IMG/VR virus record: IMGVR_UViG_3300045988_014506
From: a virus
Reading direction: 5' to 3' (one strand)
DNA: 50,496 bases
Part shown: positions 1 through 50,496 of the stretch, in pieces
Position numbering within the stretch: position 1 is the first letter of the stretch
Layout of the letters: each line of letters starts with the position of its first letter
Translations under genes and position numbers: made by a program
The notes under the pieces: generated by a model
Databases searched by the model: none
What the model was told of the DNA's origin: nothing
The model's input: the letters and a program-made list of their open reading frames with translations, nothing else

Positions 1-48
1 TACTATTTCATTGTAACACATAAATCTGGAAAGTGCAATAGGTTTTTT
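1..48. repeat. Terminal direct overlap (identical to 50449-50496)
   Basis: Read directly: tactatttcattgtaacacataaatctggaaagtgcaataggtttttt occurs at both window ends. Consistent with a circular or circularly permuted genome of about 50448 bp. The sequence is also part of a multi-copy promoter cassette. Confidence 0.8.
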
Positions 49-2652: not shown

Positions 2653-3309
2653 CTATCTACCAACTCTTCGGCTGGAACCTCTTCTTGAACTTACATTGCT
2701 ATCAGAACCTCGTCTTCTAATATTATCATTTCTAACGGGTGCATTATCATCTTCCTGTGGAAACTCGCCAGTATCTAGATATGTCTGCATCTCATCTGGG
2801 TTCTTATCCATAATAAAACCGCCAATAAATTCAGGCCTTTCTACTTCAGAAACATCAACAGGTTCCACATCTGGCATAGGGAATATCTCATACTGAGTTT
2901 TCTTATCACCTGCTGCTCCCCTTCTTTCAATCTCAAATACCATATTACTAAGATTAGGATATCTATTAAAGAGTGCTTCAATTTTCTTTCTAAAAGTCTT
3001 ACCTCTTTCCCAAATCTTCACTTTACCATCAGCGTGGTCATACATTGATAGTATCATAACTGGTTTTATTGGCATACCTGCCGCACAGAATGGGCAGTCA
3101 TCAATAGGTGAGTCATAATCTCTCTTACAATCTACATACCTATCATAGTCTCCTACCTTAACTTTGTGGCAAGCAAAAGTATCAAGTTCTCCATAATTAT
3201 TATAGAGGAACTGTACCCTGGCAACATCGCCATCATTCTGAAGTTTTAACCAATCAGTTGAGTTACCACTTCCATACTTATCCATATCATCTGGATTAAT
3301 TCTTCCCAT
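2653..3309 (-). CDS. putative gp32-like single-stranded DNA-binding protein
   Basis: 218 aa. H-x12-C-x10-C-x2-C (HKVKVGDYDRYVDCKRDYDSPIDDCPFC) closely parallels the T4 gp32 zinc site H-x12-C-x9-C-x2-C. Lies next to the polymerase. SD AAAGGAG. The C-terminal tail is basic, not acidic. Confidence 0.5.
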   Translation of the reverse strand: MGRINPDDMDKYGSGNSTDWLKLQNDGDVARVQFLYNNYGELDTFACHKVKVGDYDRYVDCKRDYDSPIDDCPFCAAGMPIKPVMILSMYDHADGKVKIWERGKTFRKKIEALFNRYPNLSNMVFEIERRGAAGDKKTQYEIFPMPDVEPVDVSEVERPEFIGGFIMDKNPDEMQTYLDTGEFPQEDDNAPVRNDNIRRRGSDSNVSSRRGSSRRVGR

Positions 3310-3438
3310 ACTAATTCTCCTTTCTACTTTTGGGTCTTTTTTGTTCTTGAAGTATATTCCCAGCTTTATTCTACTTCTTTCCCCAATGAACGCATTTCTG
3401 ATATCCGGTCCTTTGTAGTTTTTGTCTGCCAGGGAAAA

Positions 3439-3525
3439 GCGTAAGGAAGGAATCGAACCTACTCACCTAGTCAGATTATTTCAGTACCTTAGTCTGCTAG
3501 AGCTCTACCATTGAGCTACTTACGC
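3439..3525 (-). tRNA. tRNA-like gene, isotype unresolved (aberrant anticodon region)
   Basis: Minus-strand read: GCGTAAG-TA-GCTC-AATGGTA-GAGC ... GTAGG-TTCGATT-CCTTC-CTTACGC. It has a perfect 7-bp acceptor stem, a canonical D arm and a GGTTCGATTCC T arm with one T.T mismatch. 39 nt lie between the D and T arms where a class I tRNA has about 23. No CCA is encoded. Confidence 0.5.
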
Positions 3526-3691
3526 ATAAGATGCTTACCTTTGGATGGTAAAGATAAGCACCCTGTAATAAATAAATATATAGAGTCTCCAGTATTCCTA
3601 ACCATTTTATTTCTGGAGTGACTTATCACTTTAACAACTAGGTACAAAATGAAACTAAAACACCTATCTGGTTAGCACAAGTCATAATAAA

Positions 3692-4422: not shown

Positions 4423-4503
4423 ATAAACTACCTCCTTATTTATTTATTACTATTTTATTGTAACACATAAATCTGGAAAGTGCAATAAGTTTTTTAAAAT
4501 TTA
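4423..4503 (-). promoter_or_regulatory. Early promoter cassette, copy 1
   Basis: Minus strand: TTGCAC (-35, 4480-4485), 17-nt spacer, TACAAT (-10, 4457-4462) preceded by TGT (extended -10), then an AT-rich leader and GGAGG. The core is near identical to the copies at 38243, 43649 and 50424. Confidence 0.75.
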
Positions 4504-5442
4504 TTAAAAAATTTTTTTAAGTTTTAAGAAATCTTCTTGGAGTTCATTTATATCCCTACCATCTTGGTAATCTAATTCTTTAATAATCTTACCTTTTACA
4601 TAGTACCTAAATCTCTCGGTTGCCTTCCTACCAGCATCATCTGGGTCAAAAGCAAGTATATAAGTTCTAACAGGTAATTTGCTCAATATATCATACTGAA
4701 ACTGATTTCCAGTACCAATCATTGCCATACCCGGTACATTATACTTCCAACCTGTTAAGCAGTTTAGAAAACTTTCAGTTATCATTGCTTCTTTGTACTT
4801 ACCTGAAGTAAACATATTAGCACAGTATATAGGCTTGCTCTGTTCTTTAGGTAATCCAAAAAACTTAGTCTTAACTGACCTGGTTGCTACAAATACTACT
4901 CTTCCGTCTAAATCTTTAATTGGGAAAGTTAAGCAGTCCCTCTTTGAGTCATAACCAATATCAAACCTTTCTATAATATCATCAGTTAATCCTCTTTCAT
5001 ACATATAAGGATGGATGTATCTATAACTATCTAATTCTTCTTCGGTTATATCATTAATTTCTTGGGTTTCTCTGCGGTTTCTAATATCTCCTGTAAATAT
5101 CATAGGTCTCGTCTCTATCTCAAGAGAATTAAATCGCTTTACTAACCATCTTGTTCCAAACTTTCCATTATCTATATAACCAAAAAGTTCGCTAATCATC
5201 TCAGATATTGTGCCACTCCAACCACAAGTAAAGCAATGGCACTTTCCATCATCTATATTTATGCCAAAAGAAGGTTTACGTTCTTGACCATTCTTATGGA
5301 ATGGACAGTTTGTCTGAATATTTCTACCATTAGGTCTAAACATCATAAATCTATCCACTCCTTTGATATATAGTTCTGACTTTAAAGTATTTAGAACATC
5401 TTGCATATCTGCTTGGATTATAGTTTCTTCTAACTTAATCAT
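4504..5442 (-). CDS. dnaG: DNA primase (CHC2 zinc finger + TOPRIM)
   Basis: 312 aa. Zinc finger CPFHKNGQERKPSF...CHCFTCG. TOPRIM-like ITESFLN and AFDPDDAGRKA. Confidence 0.85.
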   Translation of the reverse strand: MIKLEETIIQADMQDVLNTLKSELYIKGVDRFMMFRPNGRNIQTNCPFHKNGQERKPSFGINIDDGKCHCFTCGWSGTISEMISELFGYIDNGKFGTRWLVKRFNSLEIETRPMIFTGDIRNRRETQEINDITEEELDSYRYIHPYMYERGLTDDIIERFDIGYDSKRDCLTFPIKDLDGRVVFVATRSVKTKFFGLPKEQSKPIYCANMFTSGKYKEAMITESFLNCLTGWKYNVPGMAMIGTGNQFQYDILSKLPVRTYILAFDPDDAGRKATERFRYYVKGKIIKELDYQDGRDINELQEDFLKLKKIF

Positions 5443-12047: not shown

Positions 12048-12318
12048 TCTTATTACCTTCCTTTATTCTCTCAACTTGTTCTGCAGTAAAAAATGCTGAT
12101 AATTTTGGAAAACATCTACTAACTTTCTTTTCTTCTCCTGTTTCTTTATCTTCCACAACTTTTATAGAATACTTCCATATTGTTATCTTATGTTCTGACT
12201 TTTCACCTTTCTTAACTTTATATCCAAGTTTTTTCCAAGCTTCATAAGTATGTAATTGAGTATCTAGTGGAATACCTTTTTCTAATTTATATCTAGCAAT
12301 AATATCATTGTTACTCAT
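12040..12318 (-). CDS. ArdC N-terminal-like (DUF1738-like) ssDNA-binding domain protein (putative)
   Basis: 92 aa from the ATG after the SD GGAGGTG. HTYEAWKKLGYKVKKGEKSEHKITIW resembles the ArdC-N signature (T..QW..LG..V.KGEK). First gene after a promoter cassette. Confidence 0.4.
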   Translation of the reverse strand: MSNNDIIARYKLEKGIPLDTQLHTYEAWKKLGYKVKKGEKSEHKITIWKYSIKVVEDKETGEEKKVSRCFPKLSAFFTAEQVERIKEGNKND

Positions 12319-12391
12319 AATATGCACCTCCATATTTATTTATTACTACTTTATTGTAACACATAAATTCTTAATTGTAAATAGTTTTCTC
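12319..12391 (-). promoter_or_regulatory. Promoter cassette variant, copy 3
   Basis: Minus strand: TTTACA (12376-12381), 17 nt, TACAAT (12353-12358) with TGT extension. The leader ATGGAGGTGCATATTATG is identical to the copy at 43649. Confidence 0.6.
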
Positions 12392-33930: not shown

Positions 33931-35511
33931 TTAATATCTTGATAATGAATATTCTAAACTAATATCTTTACCTGTACCGCCTTGATAACTCACATTAATT
34001 CTAATAGCATCACAATCTGAGACATCATAATAGGTATTTGAAGATATAGAATTTATAGTTTCTATTACTTCATTGTCTTTAACTTTGTATAATGTTACTG
34101 ATATAAAAACTGCTGGTAATAATGTATTGTAAGTGTTCTCATAAGTAATATAACCAAAACTTATATAATTATATTGACTTACATCCGTATCTTCTGTGTC
34201 TGTATAAGTTACGCCAGTAATATTTCCTGCCTTTATACCAAGATTATTCATTATTCTCTCTGCTTGTGTGTCTAATGCTGATGCCTGTGCTTGAGCAGTA
34301 TTATTAATAGCATCAATCTGAGATTGTGCTATTGTATTAATATCTGATATCTTGCCTAATGCCACTTGGTTAATACCATCAATCTGAGATTGGGCTGCTT
34401 GTGATATAGATTTATTCGCTGCGTCTATAGCGGCAACGGCTGAGTTGTTTATGGCAGTAATCTGAGCTGCTGCGGTATTATTTATATCACTTAACTTAGC
34501 ATCTACAATAGATTGGATATCTTGTATCTTTGCATTTACTAAGGCATCAATGCTCTGAGACATTGCTTGTAACTGAGAAGTTGCTGTGGCATTAATTGCA
34601 TCAATCTGAGATTGTGCTATTGTATTAATATCTGATATCTTGCCTAATGCCACTTGGTTAATACCATCAATCTGAGATTGGGCTGCTTGTGATATAGATT
34701 TATTCGCTGCGTCTATAGCGGCAACGGCTGAGTTGTTTATGGCAGTAATCTGAGCTGCTGCGGTATTATTTATATCACTTAACTTAGCATCTACAATAGA
34801 TTGGATATCTTGTATCTTTGCATTTACTAAGGCATCAATGCTCTGAGACATTGCTTGTAACTGAGAAGTTGCTGTGGCATTAATTGCATTAATCTGACTG
34901 GTTGCTATATTATTTATATCCCCAATCTTTGCATTAGCTACTTCGCTAATACTATTTAAACTTGCGTCTTTCTGGTTTACTATACTATTTAATGCACTTT
35001 CTTGCTGAACACTTATAGCTTTCTGAGCTGATATAACTTGCTCAGTTATATCTGCTTGTAATTGCTGCATCTGTAGATAAATCTTATTTATCTCAGTTAT
35101 AAGTTGCTCTGCTAACTCTGGATTTATATCCACTACTAAAGTATCCGACCCAATTATCTTTAATAATAATTCTAAGTTATGCACGGAATCTGGTTTATCA
35201 TCATCAACTTTCTCAGTTGCTAATGTCTCGCTTATCGTAAATGTCTTTAGATAGGATTTCTGGACAGCTTTATTACTATAGTTTATTTGTGCTTCTAACT
35301 TAACTAGCCCCTCAAGTGTTTCTGTATCTTGTTGACTTAAAGGTATAATAAAGATATCTTGCATTAGTGTAACTGCTTCTGGATACACTTTCTGAACCAT
35401 ATTTCCACTATTAGTTTGTAAAGTAAATATAATCTTATCTATTATGTCCATAGAAGAGTCGGTTATATCTGGAACCTTTACCATAAGATTATAAGTTGCT
35501 CCTGCTTTCAT
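33931..35511 (-). CDS. Repeat-rich fiber-like structural protein (526 aa)
   Basis: A long A/I/N/Q-rich helical repeat region (xxIxxINxxAxxQ) sits between globular N- and C-terminal domains. It has its own promoter and lies outside the main tail module. Confidence 0.6.
   Translation of the reverse strand: MKAGATYNLMVKVPDITDSSMDIIDKIIFTLQTNSGNMVQKVYPEAVTLMQDIFIIPLSQQDTETLEGLVKLEAQINYSNKAVQKSYLKTFTISETLATEKVDDDKPDSVHNLELLLKIIGSDTLVVDINPELAEQLITEINKIYLQMQQLQADITEQVISAQKAISVQQESALNSIVNQKDASLNSISEVANAKIGDINNIATSQINAINATATSQLQAMSQSIDALVNAKIQDIQSIVDAKLSDINNTAAAQITAINNSAVAAIDAANKSISQAAQSQIDGINQVALGKISDINTIAQSQIDAINATATSQLQAMSQSIDALVNAKIQDIQSIVDAKLSDINNTAAAQITAINNSAVAAIDAANKSISQAAQSQIDGINQVALGKISDINTIAQSQIDAINNTAQAQASALDTQAERIMNNLGIKAGNITGVTYTDTEDTDVSQYNYISFGYITYENTYNTLLPAVFISVTLYKVKDNEVIETINSISSNTYYDVSDCDAIRINVSYQGGTGKDISLEYSLSRY
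34310..34889. repeat. Perfect tandem duplication, 2 x 288 bp (96 codons), inside the fiber-like gene
   Basis: Base-by-base comparison shows 34311-34598 equals 34599-34886. The flanks continue with partial identity. Confidence 0.9.
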
Positions 35512-35541
35512 CTAATTATCTCCTTTCTATTTGATAATTAG

Positions 35542-35570
35542 ATTATACAAAGATATAGTATTTTTTACAA
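35542..35570 (-). promoter_or_regulatory. Sigma-A-type promoter for the fiber-like gene (putative)
   Basis: Minus strand: TTGTAA (35565-35570), 17 nt, TATAAT (35542-35547). Confidence 0.5.
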
Positions 35571-35573
35571 GTT

Positions 35574-35747
35574 TTATTCTATTTTGCTTTCTGCTGGTTC
35601 TTTTTCATAACTAAATAGTTTTTTATGATTATCTTCTTCCATAAATTTCTTCCAGCAAGTGGCACCCATACCTAATTCTATTGCTTTGGGATTTCTAAGC
35701 TTCCTGCCACACCTTTTACAAGTAGTTTGTTCCAACTCATTCATCAT
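35574..35747 (-). CDS. small CxxCGR zinc-ribbon protein (DUF6011-like, 57 aa)
   Basis: Hand-translated: MMNELEQTTCKRCGRKLRNPKAIELGMGATCWKKFMEEDNHKKLFSYEKEPAESKIE. Below the track cutoff. Confidence 0.5.
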   Translation of the reverse strand: MMNELEQTTCKRCGRKLRNPKAIELGMGATCWKKFMEEDNHKKLFSYEKEPAESKIE

Positions 35748-36057
35748 AGTTTTCTGTACCTCCTAACTTATCAAATACTTCTTTGTCTATAACTTCAGCT
35801 ATAAACATATCACCATCCTTACCTCCGGCACACATAACTTGAAGAACAACTACAGGTTTATGATGGTTAGACTTCCAATCACCATAACTTGGGTCATGGA
35901 CATAAGGGTTTAGATTAAGTAAAGATTTTTCTAGCGCACTTCCTAACTGAAACCTTAAAAAATAAGATTCTTTATAGTTTTTTACCAACGTACCACACAC
36001 TGCGTTTATGTGGAAACTATTATTATTTTTCATAGTGGCATTATAAGTATTAAGCAT
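35737..36057 (-). CDS. hypothetical protein (106 aa)
   Basis: The track starts at a TTG at 36081. I prefer the ATG at 36057, 6 nt after GAGGAGG. Ends in a genuine TGA stop. Confidence 0.6.
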   Translation of the reverse strand: MLNTYNATMKNNNSFHINAVCGTLVKNYKESYFLRFQLGSALEKSLLNLNPYVHDPSYGDWKSNHHKPVVVLQVMCAGGKDGDMFIAEVIDKEVFDKLGGTENYDE

Positions 36058-36457
36058 TGACGACCTCCTCAGAATCTTCAACTATACTTTTTGCAAAGTT
36101 ATAAGCTTCTTCATATGTATTCCATTTTACTGTATTATCATCTCTTACTTGCATATCATCAATATAAGCATAATAATGATTACCGCCTTCAAACTTCTTT
36201 ATTCTTATATCATTAAGTTTAAAACTTGGAAATACCAGATGTTTACGTCTAACAAAACCATATTCTTTGTCAGAATCATTTATAGCGTGATAACCACCTT
36301 TTCTATTTATATAGATACCGCCACACTGCCTTATTGTGTGTAACTGGGTAAATGCTAGCTCTTGTCTAAATAATCTTATACCATCAAATATATTAAGATG
36401 TTTACTTTGAGAAAATAAAACTATTGCTTGAGTAAGTGAGTAATACTCAGGATAAGG
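36050..36457 (-). other. Start-less 135-codon open frame, in frame with the ORF 36458-36634 across a single TGA
   Basis: Hand translation finds no stop from 36457 to the TAA at 36050-36052. No in-frame ATG/GTG/TTG occurs before codon 102, and there is no SD. Confidence 0.7.
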
Positions 36458-36634
36458 TCAATGCTTATTACTTTCGCTATTGAATTCTTTGCCTTCAAGG
36501 TAATTCTGAATTATCTGGTCAGCGTGGAAGTCAGTGTTTTCTATATAATCAATCAGTTGCTCAGCATCAGTAATCTTTAACCACCAACCTTGATTACTTG
36601 TTCCTTTATCTTTAAGCACAAATAGATATTCCAT
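36458..36634 (-). CDS. hypothetical protein (58 aa), N-terminal part of a TGA-interrupted gene
   Basis: ATG at 36634 (MEYLFVLK) follows GGGGG. Ends in TGA at 36458-36460 in the TGA-C context. Confidence 0.6.
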   Translation of the reverse strand: MEYLFVLKDKGTSNQGWWLKITDAEQLIDYIENTDFHADQIIQNYLEGKEFNSESNKH

Positions 36635-36635
36635 A

Positions 36636-37277
36636 TTATAACCCCCTAAGTTCATTTAGCATAGCTGCATAAACTTTATCTTCTTTTGCATACATCTCAT
36701 CTAACCTGCTTGCTTCAATAATCTTTCTTCTCTCAGCCATCTCTTTCTTAAGTTTTTCTTTTCTTTTTCTTCTATCAACTCTATCCATATAATCGGATAA
36801 GTCAACTTTACAGATAACTTCTTGATTAATATCCAATCTAACTTCGTCCACACTCTTTATATCTGCTATAAAGCATAACTTACCTTCAGCTACTCCTGTA
36901 ACTAATACATAGTCACTAACCTTAATGGTATCATCATATAGAGCATAAGCATATGTCTTGTCCGAACCATCAATACTTACCATTGCTACTTTATTATATC
37001 CTTCTAACTTAATATTCATCTTATTACCCTCCTTATTATTAATTTCTTCTAAATTTTCAGGATTAAACCAAAAGCATCCATAACTAGATGCTTCATTATT
37101 TACACCATCTACGTCTACACCAACCTTTATTCCAGAAACTCTAACAACGGTACCTTCTTTACCTACCAGACTTCTGTAGTGACTATTATGAGACACACAT
37201 CTATGAGGTAAATCTAATATTCTAACACGTTGTCCTTCATTAGGGTCTGGACCAAGATTTAACCTAATATTATACAT
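36636..37277 (-). CDS. hypothetical protein (213 aa)
   Basis: Start moved to the ATG at 37277 (MYNIRLN), preceded by AAGGAGG. Confidence 0.6.
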   Translation of the reverse strand: MYNIRLNLGPDPNEGQRVRILDLPHRCVSHNSHYRSLVGKEGTVVRVSGIKVGVDVDGVNNEASSYGCFWFNPENLEEINNKEGNKMNIKLEGYNKVAMVSIDGSDKTYAYALYDDTIKVSDYVLVTGVAEGKLCFIADIKSVDEVRLDINQEVICKVDLSDYMDRVDRRKRKEKLKKEMAERRKIIEASRLDEMYAKEDKVYAAMLNELRGL

Positions 37278-37290
37278 AACTGTAACCTCC

Positions 37291-37575
37291 TTATTTATCA
37301 ATTACCACTTTTATAAATCCTTTAAGCGTCTTATTACCAGTCATAGTATTCACACCTACATCCCAATGGATATGTGGTAAGAGCATATCTCCCAGACGTC
37401 TTGCTATATCTCTTTTTATACAATCTACTGGTATTCTTTCTTCAAGGTCAAGTGAGTATCCAAACTCAGTAATATTTTTTTCTAATATATTTATAGTAGG
37501 TTTTGAACAGTCTAGCATACCCTCAAGGTATGCTATCCTATTCCTAAGTTGCTTCTTTGATTGCCATTTCTTCAT
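37291..37575 (-). CDS. hypothetical protein (94 aa)
   Basis: The track ORF extends to 37767, overlapping the upstream gene. The ATG at 37575 (MKKWQSK) follows AAGGAGGG. Confidence 0.55.
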   Translation of the reverse strand: MKKWQSKKQLRNRIAYLEGMLDCSKPTINILEKNITEFGYSLDLEERIPVDCIKRDIARRLGDMLLPHIHWDVGVNTMTGNKTLKGFIKVVIDK

Positions 37576-37588
37576 ATATAATCCCTCC

Positions 37589-38242
37589 TTAGCATCCAAT
37601 CTGTCTAGCAGACATAGCTGATTTTCCTTCCTGCTTTCCTTCATACATTGCTTGTTTAGTATGACCGTATGTTCTTCCATTACTTCTAATACTAATAGAA
37701 GTGTTTTTTGTGCCAAAATCTTTAGAATATTCAGCATAGCTTTCCTTAACTTCTTCAGGTATAACAATCATAAGAGCGGTACACTGTGCATCCAATGCTT
37801 CTTTAACACCAGAAGTAAAACCATAAGTAAAAGAATTATAAACTCCAGAAGCACTTCCTACTTCTTTCTTAACTTTACGAGTATAAGCATTAGCTTTCTT
37901 ATCACCTACCTTATATAGGTATTCAAAAGTTGAGCAAGCTACTTCAGTATCTGTCTCATACCCATAAAAGTAAATTCTTCTTCCACACATAAACATCTGG
38001 CATCTAAAATTTCTAGCTATTACTGATGCTAGTGAATACTTCCATTTTGCCAAACCCACATCAGTAAACTTTTCTACAATATTCTCAGAAGTTTCATCAT
38101 TAATATCTGATTCTTTAATATTGTACTTTGCTAATAATTCTTGTGCTTTCAGTGCTGCTGCCTTTGCTTCTTCTTCGGATGGATTATTCTTTGATAATTC
38201 CAATACCTTCTTAATTGTTGCAATAATTTTCTCATTCTTCAT
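37589..38242 (-). CDS. DUF2786-like protein
   Basis: 217 aa. The N-terminus IATIKKVLELSKNNPSEEEAKAAALKAQELLAKYNI matches the DUF2786 pattern. First gene after an early cassette. Confidence 0.55.
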   Translation of the reverse strand: MKNEKIIATIKKVLELSKNNPSEEEAKAAALKAQELLAKYNIKESDINDETSENIVEKFTDVGLAKWKYSLASVIARNFRCQMFMCGRRIYFYGYETDTEVACSTFEYLYKVGDKKANAYTRKVKKEVGSASGVYNSFTYGFTSGVKEALDAQCTALMIVIPEEVKESYAEYSKDFGTKNTSISIRSNGRTYGHTKQAMYEGKQEGKSAMSARQIGC

Positions 38243-38334
38243 AAGAACACCTCCATATATTTAATATTTATTACTACTTTATTGTAACACATAAATCTGG
38301 AAAGTGCAATAGGTTTTTTAAAATTTGTAGAAAA
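38243..38334 (-). promoter_or_regulatory. Early promoter cassette, copy 4
   Basis: Minus strand: TTGCAC (38304-38309), 17 nt, TACAAT (38281-38286) with TGT extension. The core is identical to the other copies. Confidence 0.75.
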
Positions 38335-39279
38335 TTACTGCAGACAACTAACAACTAAGTAGTCTAAAGCCACGTCTTCGTCAATCAAACCTTTCTTTAT
38401 ACCACTTTCAACTTCTTGGCATATAATCATATTTCTGACTAGTTCTTTATTACTATAACCACCTATATTTTTCTTAACTTGCTGTATTTGCCATCCAGTT
38501 AAACCTGTTCTAATACCTGGATTAGATTTGTCTTTTCCGAGTCCTTGGTAAGCTAGCATATTTCTAAAACCATTATATAAGATACTTGCTATTACCATTG
38601 AAGGTTCATTCTTAAGTTTTGCTTCTTGTAATACTTTACCTGCTTTTTCTAAGTCGCCATAAAGTACGGCATCTGTAAGTTCAAAAGTTATATCTCCTAT
38701 ATCTGCATAGATAGCATCTTGGTTTATTAGCATAGCAAAAGCATCAACGGCCTTAAGTTTTGTGGCATTCATATAATGAGTTATCTTATCACACTCTAAT
38801 AGTATCCTGCCATAATCATTACCACACATATTGCATAGTTTCTCCGCATTATTCTCGGGTAGCTCTGGGATTATATTAAGTATATAGTTAATTAATACAC
38901 TGGTATCTAATTTATTGAACTCTACACAGATTTCTTTATTTCTTGTATAGAATTTTCTAGTTTTATTAATATTAGCATACCGAAGTATAAGTATATGCTT
39001 ACTGGAATTAACTATATCTTTCACACTTTCCCATTTATCTTCTTTATTTGTATATTCAGAATCTTCAGTAACCACATAAGCTTTAACTGACTTGTCCAAA
39101 GATTTCTTATCAATACGACTTAGTACAGAAGATACATTATCACAGTGCACTATCTTATATCCAATATCTGCAATCTTACTAAGGTATATATCTAATATCT
39201 TTTGCTCTTCTCCAAACCATATAGAATACTTAGGCGGATTACTATTAGATATTGATTGCATAAGTTTTACTAATTCCAT
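38335..39279 (-). CDS. Clamp loader delta-subunit-like protein (putative)
   Basis: 314 aa. The N-terminus PKYSIWFGEEQKILDIY resembles HolA (YLLYGEE.fL). Lies in an operon with the DnaX-like and delta-prime-like genes. Confidence 0.5.
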   Translation of the reverse strand: MELVKLMQSISNSNPPKYSIWFGEEQKILDIYLSKIADIGYKIVHCDNVSSVLSRIDKKSLDKSVKAYVVTEDSEYTNKEDKWESVKDIVNSSKHILILRYANINKTRKFYTRNKEICVEFNKLDTSVLINYILNIIPELPENNAEKLCNMCGNDYGRILLECDKITHYMNATKLKAVDAFAMLINQDAIYADIGDITFELTDAVLYGDLEKAGKVLQEAKLKNEPSMVIASILYNGFRNMLAYQGLGKDKSNPGIRTGLTGWQIQQVKKNIGGYSNKELVRNMIICQEVESGIKKGLIDEDVALDYLVVSCLQ

Positions 39280-42620: not shown

Positions 42621-43154
42621 TTATATCTCCTCCCATTTCTTTATTGCTGACTTTATAACCCAACCTTTCCAAGTTACACTTCCTATCTGCTCAACTAAGA
42701 TATTCCACTTTTCTTTTGCTTCTTCTTCAGTTTCAATTCTTAATATACCAGCTTTTGCACTACATTCTGGTCCTATACCATATAACTTCGAGATTGGATT
42801 ACTAAGAGTTCTTCCACAGCACATACAGATTGAAGTTGGTTCAGCTTTACCTTGTAATTCCATCTGGTACATACCTCTAGTCTCTTTTATAACTCTGCCT
42901 TGCATAACTACAAGTGGCATAGGTTTATCATCATTCCATTTAGTATGGAAATCAAATGTAGTAGTTGCTGGCTCAGTCATATACTTCTTTACTTGAATCT
43001 TATAAGTATTACCAACAGTCATCTTATTAACTGGACATAATAATGAACTATCTTTTTCTTTGCCATCACTACTTGGAAGTACAATCTTAAATTCTTTACC
43101 AAGTTCAAATGACTGTTCTTTGAATCTATGAATCTGACTAAATACACTAATCAC
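42621..43154 (-). CDS. hypothetical protein with C-terminal CxxCGR (DUF6011-like) motif
   Basis: 177 aa. CMCCGRTLSNPISKLYGIGPEC. GTG start overlaps the upstream TGA (GTGA) and follows GGAGG. Confidence 0.55.
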   Translation of the reverse strand: MISVFSQIHRFKEQSFELGKEFKIVLPSSDGKEKDSSLLCPVNKMTVGNTYKIQVKKYMTEPATTTFDFHTKWNDDKPMPLVVMQGRVIKETRGMYQMELQGKAEPTSICMCCGRTLSNPISKLYGIGPECSAKAGILRIETEEEAKEKWNILVEQIGSVTWKGWVIKSAIKKWEEI

Positions 43155-43342: not shown

Positions 43343-43648
43343 TTACTTATACTCCATACAACACTTCTGGTCATTCCAATAATGTACTTTACTAACTATA
43401 AGATTATCACGGTTGCTCACTTTTGTACTTACAAAGTAGTCATTCTTATTAGCTTTGCCAATAGTATTGAGATTTAAGTCTGTCTTAACAATAGTTCCAC
43501 TATCTGTTGTAACTACAACTTGTGTCTTTGTAAATTTTGTTATTGTTCCAAACTCACCAAATATAGTATGTCCGGAACCACACCGTGCAACAAGCACTTT
43601 CTGTCCAAGTTCTATTTCTTCAAACCTTCCACAATTAAAAATCTTCAT
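43343..43648 (-). CDS. hypothetical protein (101 aa), first gene after an early cassette
   Basis: The track ORF runs upstream through the promoter. The real start is taken as the ATG at 43648 (MKIFNCGRF), 6 nt after GGAGGTG. Confidence 0.6.
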   Translation of the reverse strand: MKIFNCGRFEEIELGQKVLVARCGSGHTIFGEFGTITKFTKTQVVVTTDSGTIVKTDLNLNTIGKANKNDYFVSTKVSNRDNLIVSKVHYWNDQKCCMEYK

Positions 43649-43736
43649 AATATGCACCTCCATATATTTAATATTTATTACTATTTCATTGTAACACATA
43701 AATCTGGAAAGTGCAATAGGTTTTTTAAAATTTATT
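43649..43736 (-). promoter_or_regulatory. Early promoter cassette, copy 5
   Basis: Minus strand: TTGCAC (43711-43716), 17 nt, TACAAT (43688-43693) with TGT extension. Leader ATGGAGGTGCATATTATG. Confidence 0.75.
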
Positions 43737-43769
43737 AAAAAAAAATAAAGCAGGATAATCTCCTGCTTT
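43737..43769 (-). terminator. Rho-independent terminator
   Basis: Stem AAAGCAGGA (43747-43755) / TCCTGCTTT (43761-43769) with a 5-nt loop. Followed on the minus strand by ATTTTTTTTT. Lies directly after the recA-like stop. Confidence 0.8.
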
Positions 43770-50225: not shown

Positions 50226-50423
50226 CTACAATGTTCTACCAACCACTATTCCTAATGCTGAATAGAATGCTTCTGCAATCTGCTTATTAGAATATTCTGA
50301 ATAGTCAAAACCATTACACTTCATACTTTCACAGACTTCTACAAGATTAAAATCTAAGAACTCTCCCGTCTGGTCAAGTACTTCTGTAATCTGCTCCACA
50401 AAATAATTTCTAATCTTACTCAT
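50226..50423 (-). CDS. small hypothetical protein (65 aa), first gene after an early cassette
   Basis: ATG at 50423 (MSKIRNYF), 6 nt after GGAGGTG. Confidence 0.55.
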   Translation of the reverse strand: MSKIRNYFVEQITEVLDQTGEFLDFNLVEVCESMKCNGFDYSEYSNKQIAEAFYSALGIVVGRTL

Positions 50424-50496
50424 AATATGCACCTCCAGATTTATTTATTACTATTTCATTGTAACACATAAATCTGGAAAGTGCAATAGGTTTTTT
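50424..50496 (-). promoter_or_regulatory. Early promoter cassette, copy 6 (continues into 1-60 if the genome is circular)
   Basis: Minus strand: TTGCAC (50481-50486), 17 nt, TACAAT (50458-50463) with TGT extension. Confidence 0.75.
50449..50496. repeat. Terminal direct overlap (identical to 1-48)
   Basis: See the feature at 1-48. Confidence 0.8.

Follow-up and report, generated by a model that had tools for sequence, protein, structure and literature searches.

An in-frame TGA that splits a conserved phage gene is probably a young nonsense allele

In-frame stop codons in prokaryotic genes are common and short-lived, are over-represented in the genes of phages and transposons, and include the leaky stop TGA (Belinky et al. 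2021, PMC7918605). Here we investigate such a codon in a virus genome, the IMG/VR record IMGVR_UViG_3300045988_014506, of which the whole stretch of 50,496 nucleotides (nt) was analysed and is called the window. The codon, a TGA at 36458..36460 on the minus strand, interrupts a gene at 36050..36634 on the same strand that is 194 codons long when the TGA is counted and belongs to a phage and prophage family of proteins of about 180–200 amino acids (aa). Three other described systems invite comparison. In phage Q-beta, readthrough of a UGA leads from the coat protein to the A1 protein; the readthrough stop is fixed there and the extended product is essential. In stop-recoded gut phages TAG or TGA has been reassigned, with suppressor tRNAs. 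In bacterial selenoproteins, UGA for selenocysteine (Sec) is paired with cysteine (Cys) in homologues. Is the present TGA read through in a programmed manner, as the original prediction, made from the letters of the window alone, had proposed as one possibility? Or is it the result of a recent nonsense mutation or of an assembly error, the two other possibilities that it had named?

The TGA is most probably a young nonsense allele of a normal phage gene for a single polypeptide. In contig L043 (PPYE01000327.1), which has 98% DNA identity to the window over 4.1 kb, codon 59 is TGC, for Cys, and the 90%-identity cluster of the protein contains five other full-length variants (P0123–P0127), all with Cys59. 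Two contigs that encode such variants, L117 and L118, share 98.1% and 99.5% identity with the window in the gene region and 99.1–99.9% over the other aligned blocks; in the 585-nt gene they differ from it only at codon 59 (TGC versus TGA) and codon 60 (CTT versus CCT). The variant at codon 60 is common to L043, so it is not private to the window lineage, and the TGA is the sole private change of that lineage in the 585 nt. A more distant homologue, in L003 with 78% aa identity, has TGT at codon 59. The original prediction had left it to the homologues to say what this position holds, and in the closest relatives it is a sense codon for Cys, TGC or TGT. The codons of the relatives show that the ancestral codon is Cys and that a single base changed, and they strongly support an origin of the TGA from TGC by one very recent substitution, C to A. 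Here the recent nonsense mutation that had been listed among the options receives its main support, from TGC in near-identical strains. The relatives are one base away, the flanks are nearly unchanged and the stop is reproducible, as would be expected of a nonsense allele. The frame downstream of the TGA would still be perfect because the mutation is too recent for decay to have set in.

In these respects the locus is like the in-frame stop polymorphisms described previously (PMC7918605). One base has changed to give a stop in a gene that is otherwise intact and under purifying selection, a sense codon is present in very close relatives with hardly any other mismatch nearby, which points to a short-lived allele, and the gene is a phage gene, a class in which such stops are over-represented, with TGA, a leaky stop, as the codon.

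The reading frame opens with an ATG at 36634-36632, which has AGGGGG 5' of it, and continues for 58 sense codons (36461..36634, minus strand; MEYLFVLKDKGT...SNKH) to the TGA at 36460-36458, where the next base is C. In the same frame 135 further sense codons follow before a TAA at 36052-36050; this part 3' of the stop (36050..36457, minus strand) is the intact, conserved C-terminal two thirds of the protein. The first in-frame ATG, GTG or TTG beyond the TGA is an ATG at 36154 (MQVRDD...), codon 102 of the downstream stretch, and no Shine-Dalgarno sequence was found for that stretch. At its end the full-length frame overlaps the ATG of the next gene (ATGCTTAA). All coordinates of the predicted layout, of 58 codons, TGA, 135 codons and TAA, were reproduced, as were the observations that no start precedes codon 102 (the ATG at 36154) and that no Shine-Dalgarno is present downstream, the overlap of the end with the next start at 36057-36055, and the C after the stop, which can be read directly in the sequence. 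From these features the downstream stretch had been judged to be coding, yet not an independent gene, and this judgement is upheld by the full-length homologues together with the lack of a start and Shine-Dalgarno of its own. The argument that so long an open run would be unlikely by chance is now joined by homology to more than 140 full-length proteins.

Homologues were sought with the fused sequence as query, carrying an X at the stop, which gave 141 database matches at an expect value (E) ≤0.01. Nearly all are 177–232 aa long, with about 95% coverage of the query and E down to 1e-98, and the downstream frame matches more than 140 full-length proteins over their C-terminal two thirds. Residues that are invariant or nearly so lie both 5' of the stop (F5, G16, W18, L19 and Y30) and 3' of it (N110, P136, G151, H153, Y155 and K170). 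Because the homologues are single proteins spanning both halves, the two halves are shown to be one gene. Homologues are found in genomes of Lachnospiraceae, among them those of Clostridium symbiosum, Blautia and Ruminococcus, as well as in viral contigs of 8–380 kb, and the gene is present in a single copy in the window according to a tblastn check for paralogues.

An AlphaFold2 model built with the family alignment has a mean predicted local distance difference test score (pLDDT) of 91.9 and a predicted template modelling score (pTM) of 0.80, the latter of which suggests one compact fold. In the model the 58 residues 5' of the stop form a beta-hairpin and two helices, and residue 59 is in a coil (49–61) between a helix at 38–47 and a helix at 62–77. 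The stop is therefore placed by the model in a loop between the N-terminal beta-hairpin and two-helix unit and the remainder of the protein, and this is the one point that speaks for gene fission, that is, for two separately initiated genes. Fission is nevertheless a highly improbable explanation, given the single predicted fold, homologues that are single polypeptides, and the 101 codons after the stop that are without ATG, GTG or TTG or any Shine-Dalgarno.

Nothing significant was found for either half or for the fusion in Pfam, PHROGs, NCBIfam or a PDB sequence profile search, and megablast and tblastn of the region against GenBank phages gave no match. A fold search with the AlphaFold2 model found no match in the PDB (best E 0.78), and its sole viral match was the unnamed H9NBR2 (E 1.7e-4). 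The family may represent an undescribed fold: it has more than 140 database matches and a confident predicted structure, and is without a PDB match.

The column of the family alignment that corresponds to codon 59 is among the most variable. It holds 13 different residues (A 26, I 22, C 12, V 12, F 10, S 8, G 8, etc.), and the length of the loop varies as well. A sense residue or a gap is present at this column in 116 of the 118 aligned family members.

Is the TGA itself real? It is included in four further contigs, which come from different assemblers and from two runs plus one further sample accession. These are L001, from the Logan assembly of ERR209862 (3,435 nt, the whole contig, 100% identity to the window); L114, a k127 contig of the same run (14,684 nt of a 44,985-nt contig, 99.9–100% identity); L116, a k127 contig of ERR209861 (6,618 nt, the whole contig, 100% identity); and L115, a scaffold from SAMEA2042624 (12,325 nt of a 50,503-nt scaffold, 100% identity). 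In addition, the 58-aa product (P0121) is present in public gene calls on 5 contigs (NCBI, JGI and ENA). If the true base gave TGC, the stop would be an artefact of sequencing or assembly. C-to-A (G-to-T) transversions are the class that is made by oxidative damage during library preparation. The stop arose by such a change, and all of the TGA contigs may share one study, perhaps one individual. Set against this are the identical base in the window and in four contigs (Logan, two k127 and one scaffolded) and the low frequency of damage errors, which should not become the consensus of a fully assembled 50-kb contig. We regard an artefact as very unlikely, and the assembly error offered by the original prediction is not borne out, since the TGA recurs across the assemblies of ERR209861, ERR209862 and SAMEA2042624 made with different assemblers. 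With their possible common origin in one study, or even one person, the allele is real but private.

A further possibility is that TGA is not a stop in this phage or its host but encodes tryptophan (Trp, W), as in genetic code 4, or that it is suppressed. Public gene calls do place a W at the TGA in the window gene (P0001), and likewise in P0013, the homologue at 27-617 of contig L002, using an alternative code. The same genes are also recorded as fragments of 58/65 aa and 123 aa (P0121, P0122 and P0060). The W at the stop in P0001 is an artefact of the gene caller, for which an alternative code was picked on a short contig, and code-4 calls of this kind give rise to misleading "full-length" entries in databases, for proteins that the standard code would not yield. 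A codon census of the 62 open reading frames (ORFs) of at least 80 aa in the window, the split gene excluded, covered 15,148 codons and found 158 TGG and no in-frame TGA. These ORFs end in TAA (42), TAG (17) or TGA (3); those ending in TGA are at 35737, 39607 and 45318, and a 58-aa ORF ending at 43151-43153 and other small ORFs also use it. When TGA was read as sense, no other gene was meaningfully lengthened. The original prediction had held that TGA is a genuine stop elsewhere, citing 35737 and 43151-43153, and that genome-wide recoding is excluded; both of these statements are confirmed by the census, which refutes recoding for the phage genome.

The sole tRNA of the phage is a tRNA-Leu(AAG) at 3438-3525 on the minus strand, with the long variable arm that is typical of tRNA-Leu, and it was also the only hit of an Rfam scan of the whole window at the gathering threshold. 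Neither a suppressor tRNA (anticodon UCA) nor a release-factor gene is encoded in the phage. Homologues sit in genomes of Lachnospiraceae, which are not known to use any but the standard code, and the flanks of the gene in L057, a contig discussed below, also have TGG only. No hidden TGA-coded Trp was found in P0058 and P0117, family members with a rare W: both translate under the standard code, and their W is TGG. With all 158 Trp codons of a 50-kb genome being TGG, several genes terminated by TGA and the W calls attributable to short contigs, an alternative code or suppressor has next to no chance of being the explanation. Like the stop-recoded gut phages, this is a gut phage with an in-frame stop for which an alternative code was picked, but unlike them it has a single in-frame TGA among about 15,000 codons, its TGA terminates, and it is without a suppressor tRNA or release factor.

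Programmed readthrough might be recognised by a conserved stop, a weak termination context and a stimulatory structure, and of these three only the weak context, TGA-C, is present. Poole, Brown and Tate reportedly described UGA-C in 1995 as the weakest termination context in E. coli; here it would allow only basal leakiness. The hairpin TGAGTA-N9-TACTCA that had been noticed downstream of the TGA does exist, yet as a signal it fails, for the region is no more stable than shuffled sequence. A stretch of 72 nt that surrounds the TGA and extends 3' of it has a folding energy of -6.7 kcal/mol (z = -0.37), with 72 of 200 shuffles as good, and the corresponding z values are +0.76 and -0.11 downstream of the TGA codons in L002 and L057. 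A permissive Rfam scan of 36250-36560, with E up to 10, returned nothing. The programmed readthrough that had been put forward is not supported: the stop is unconserved even in strains of 98–99.5% identity, the family consists of single polypeptides and there is no structure above chance. Nothing indicates a programmed, conserved recoding signal. The locus is like the coat-to-A1 readthrough of Q-beta in that a phage in-frame UGA is followed by a coding-looking frame, and in that the two products would have a common N-terminus if the stop leaks. It is unlike it in that sister strains and nearly all of the family lack the stop, and the short product is without an evident role.

Could the UGA instead be decoded as Sec by the SelB machinery of the host? 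As in the Sec/Cys pairs of bacterial selenoproteins, the UGA is found where the nearest homologues have Cys; the ancestral and sister codon is Cys, and twelve other family members have Cys at the column. Many Clostridia use Sec. Against decoding as Sec there is no hairpin like a selenocysteine insertion sequence (SECIS), as judged by the z of -0.37, the lack of a G in the loops of the small hairpins and the empty Rfam scan. Nor is Cys conserved at the column across the family, where A (26) and I (22) exceed C and V (12 each), and the surroundings, SESNKH-TGA-PYPEYYS, have no second Cys and hence no local redox motif. Two other TGA alleles in the family replace Gly and Trp, and the TGA is not kept in strains of 98–99.5% identity. 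The chance of a selenoprotein is accordingly minute, and the locus differs from known ones in the absence of a SECIS and a redox motif, in the variability of the position and in the lack of conservation of the TGA.

The two other TGA alleles just mentioned belong to a set of premature stops within the family. Chicken-gut contigs L002 and L110, which are 99.4% identical to each other and carry the gene at 27-617 in each, have a change of GGA to TGA at exactly the alignment column of the window stop, in the context CAC TGA CCA. The gene is intact in their sister L113, which has GGA there and 98.7% identity to L002. L111 (373-963) and L112 (288-878), 99.0% identical to L002, also have GGA at that column and instead have a change of GAA to TAA at codon 183. 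In L057, a 54-kb human-gut contig with the gene at about 3001-3609, TGG has become TGA in GKE-W-NW; this TGA is 8 residues upstream of the window stop in the tblastn alignment, or 13 alignment columns away owing to an indel, and seven close relatives of L057 have TGG. The family therefore contains four independent nonsense events, three of the four being TGA and three of the four lying in one loop, and every premature stop has intact, near-identical relatives. With their intact sisters, the other nonsense alleles of the family match the published picture of short-lived polymorphism (PMC7918605). They also mark a difference from it, namely that here the same loop has been hit independently in three lineages, once at the same column.

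This clustering was assessed by simulation, with nonsense mutations drawn uniformly from all single-step paths in three ancestral-like sequences. The resulting probabilities, which are nominal and post hoc, were 0.009 for the window and chicken-gut events to fall on the same column, 0.013 for three events to fall within 13 columns, 0.049 for at least three of four events to fall within a 13-column span and 0.038 for at least three of four events to be TGA, an excess that is partly due to ascertainment in that two alleles surfaced only via code-4 gene calls. The private substitutions, of which the counts are small, were four nonsynonymous to one synonymous in L057 and three to four nonsynonymous to one synonymous in the chicken-gut allele, with intact sisters similar.

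Two kinds of observation weigh against a plain nonsense allele. In a phage genome that is otherwise intact and complete, the assembled consensus has the TGA allele, which is clearly not strongly deleterious. The clustering by loop and column and the excess of TGA hint that position and stop type have been filtered by selection, so that at least some of the TGA alleles may keep function through leakage. The recurrence of TGA in one permissive loop, the only unusual aspect of the locus, keeps alive the most probable of the alternatives, a tolerated or selected leaky stop, that is, a hypomorph in which a near-cognate tRNA (Trp) would supply a low yet sufficient dose of full-length protein. We consider this possible though unlikely, and the same holds for its corollary that such alleles would arise repeatedly in the family to turn expression down. 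TGA in the same loop in three independent lineages favours it, with window and L002/L110 sharing both the column and a TGA followed by C, and so do the simulated probabilities for the column, the 13 columns and the TGA excess. An inserted Trp should also be harmless in a coil column that is variable, in a loop of variable length. Wild-type Bacillus subtilis has about 6% UGA readthrough, as quoted in PMC7918605. On the other side, the probabilities were calculated post hoc, code-4 calls account for part of the TGA excess, and none of the TGA alleles is long-lived, since each has intact near-identical sisters. The mostly nonsynonymous private changes of L057 and the chicken-gut allele fit relaxed constraint equally well, the context in L057 is TGA-A rather than TGA-C, and no downstream structure is present.

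More specifically, the surface loop at residues of about 51–60 might be a recurrent site of tolerated or selected leaky UGA, reached from Cys, Gly and Trp codons, a proposal that we think doubtful. It is likewise doubtful that the TGA alleles in the loop are reversible low-expression versions of the gene, working by basal misreading of UGA as Trp in Clostridia hosts. If true, this would show unprogrammed readthrough being used in nature to tune the dose of a protein. If the recurrence is not a coincidence, the family would offer a natural system in which to gauge basal UGA leakage in gut Clostridia, and could show whether phages use such leakage to dial a gene down reversibly.

For the young nonsense allele, which remains our preferred reading, the following course of events is proposed. 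In the sampled lineage, Cys codon 59 changed from TGC to TGA by a C-to-A transversion, and ribosomes starting at the ATG at 36634 would now mostly stop after 58 residues. The 58-codon part is all that is translated if no ribosome passes the TGA. Any full-length product would come from unprogrammed leakage; low-level function might then be retained by near-cognate decoding of UGA-C, at a few percent at most, with Trp placed in a variable surface loop. The allele is best read, from its sequence, as a null or weakly expressed version of an accessory early gene, and it may be neutral, mildly deleterious or a selected loss of function. Since the phage genome is otherwise intact and seems to be complete, the gene would be either dispensable under the sampled conditions or functional at a low dose. 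Loss of function in a phage can be positively selected as an escape from host defence, and in one study nonsense mutations were present in 4 of 66 escape mutants of lactococcal phages (PMC12184496). The TGA allele may possibly be a loss of function selected for defence escape. More generally, an open frame after TGA-C in a tidy phage genome mimics programmed readthrough, and it was the sister strains that revealed a nonsense polymorphism.

The split gene comes fourth in a series of small genes with the same orientation, in the order DUF2786/DUF7168 protein, 94-aa protein, 213-aa protein, split gene, 106-aa protein and DUF6011 protein. The TAA of the upstream gene (36636..37277, minus strand; 213 aa) immediately precedes the ATG with which the split gene begins. 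The next gene (35737..36057, minus strand; 106 aa) starts with the ATG at 36057-36055 and has a GAGGAGG Shine-Dalgarno of its own; its expression might be lowered by the early termination upstream through polarity. No known family was matched by these 106-aa and 213-aa neighbours. In a scan of 35500-38400 for promoters and terminators nothing scored above chance, with no terminator past the TGA and no internal promoter.

Right beside the split gene there is an indel polymorphism that affects a DUF6011 gene. L117 and L118 are without about 186 bp at ~35513-35698, such that most of the 57-aa DUF6011 gene (35574-35747, minus strand) is missing from them. A second DUF6011 protein of 177 aa is encoded at 42621-43154. 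Beyond the first of these genes, a 526-aa ORF at 33931-35511 on the minus strand consists largely of long, near-perfect tandem repeats (…SQIDAINATATSQLQAMSQSIDALVNAKIQDIQSIVDAKLSDINNTAAAQITAINNSAV…). Its counterparts have 450, 430 and 421 aa in L117, L114 and L118, so the number of repeats varies between strains.

Five conserved cassettes of about 90 nt are present on the minus strand of the window, at 43642-43742, 38236-38334, 4441-4511, 12315-12368 and 50420-50496 (continuing into 1-55). Their order is AAAAAACCTATTGCAC, a 17-nt spacer, TGT-TACAAT (like an extended -10 element), an AT-rich leader of about 25 nt, GGAGGT and ATG. They look like repeated units of a promoter and 5' untranslated region that head five transcription units, and the operon to which the split gene belongs would be transcribed from the copy at 38236-38334.

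With about 50.4 kb, the contig probably represents a whole phage genome that is circular or circularly permuted. The first ~48 nt of the window (1-48) are repeated exactly at 50449-50496, and a scaffold of 50,503 nt exists in another assembly, its retrieved 12.3 kb being identical to the window. Between about 39279 and 47669, on the minus strand, are genes for a DNA polymerase III beta-clamp-like protein, clamp-loader proteins (delta/delta'-like, AAA), a RecA homologue, MazG and a protein with an Nlig-Ia domain; these assignments to replication and recombination are precomputed Pfam hits on an identical contig. The TerL protein shares about 50% identity with its counterparts in human faecal phages and in Blautia phage Montmirail.

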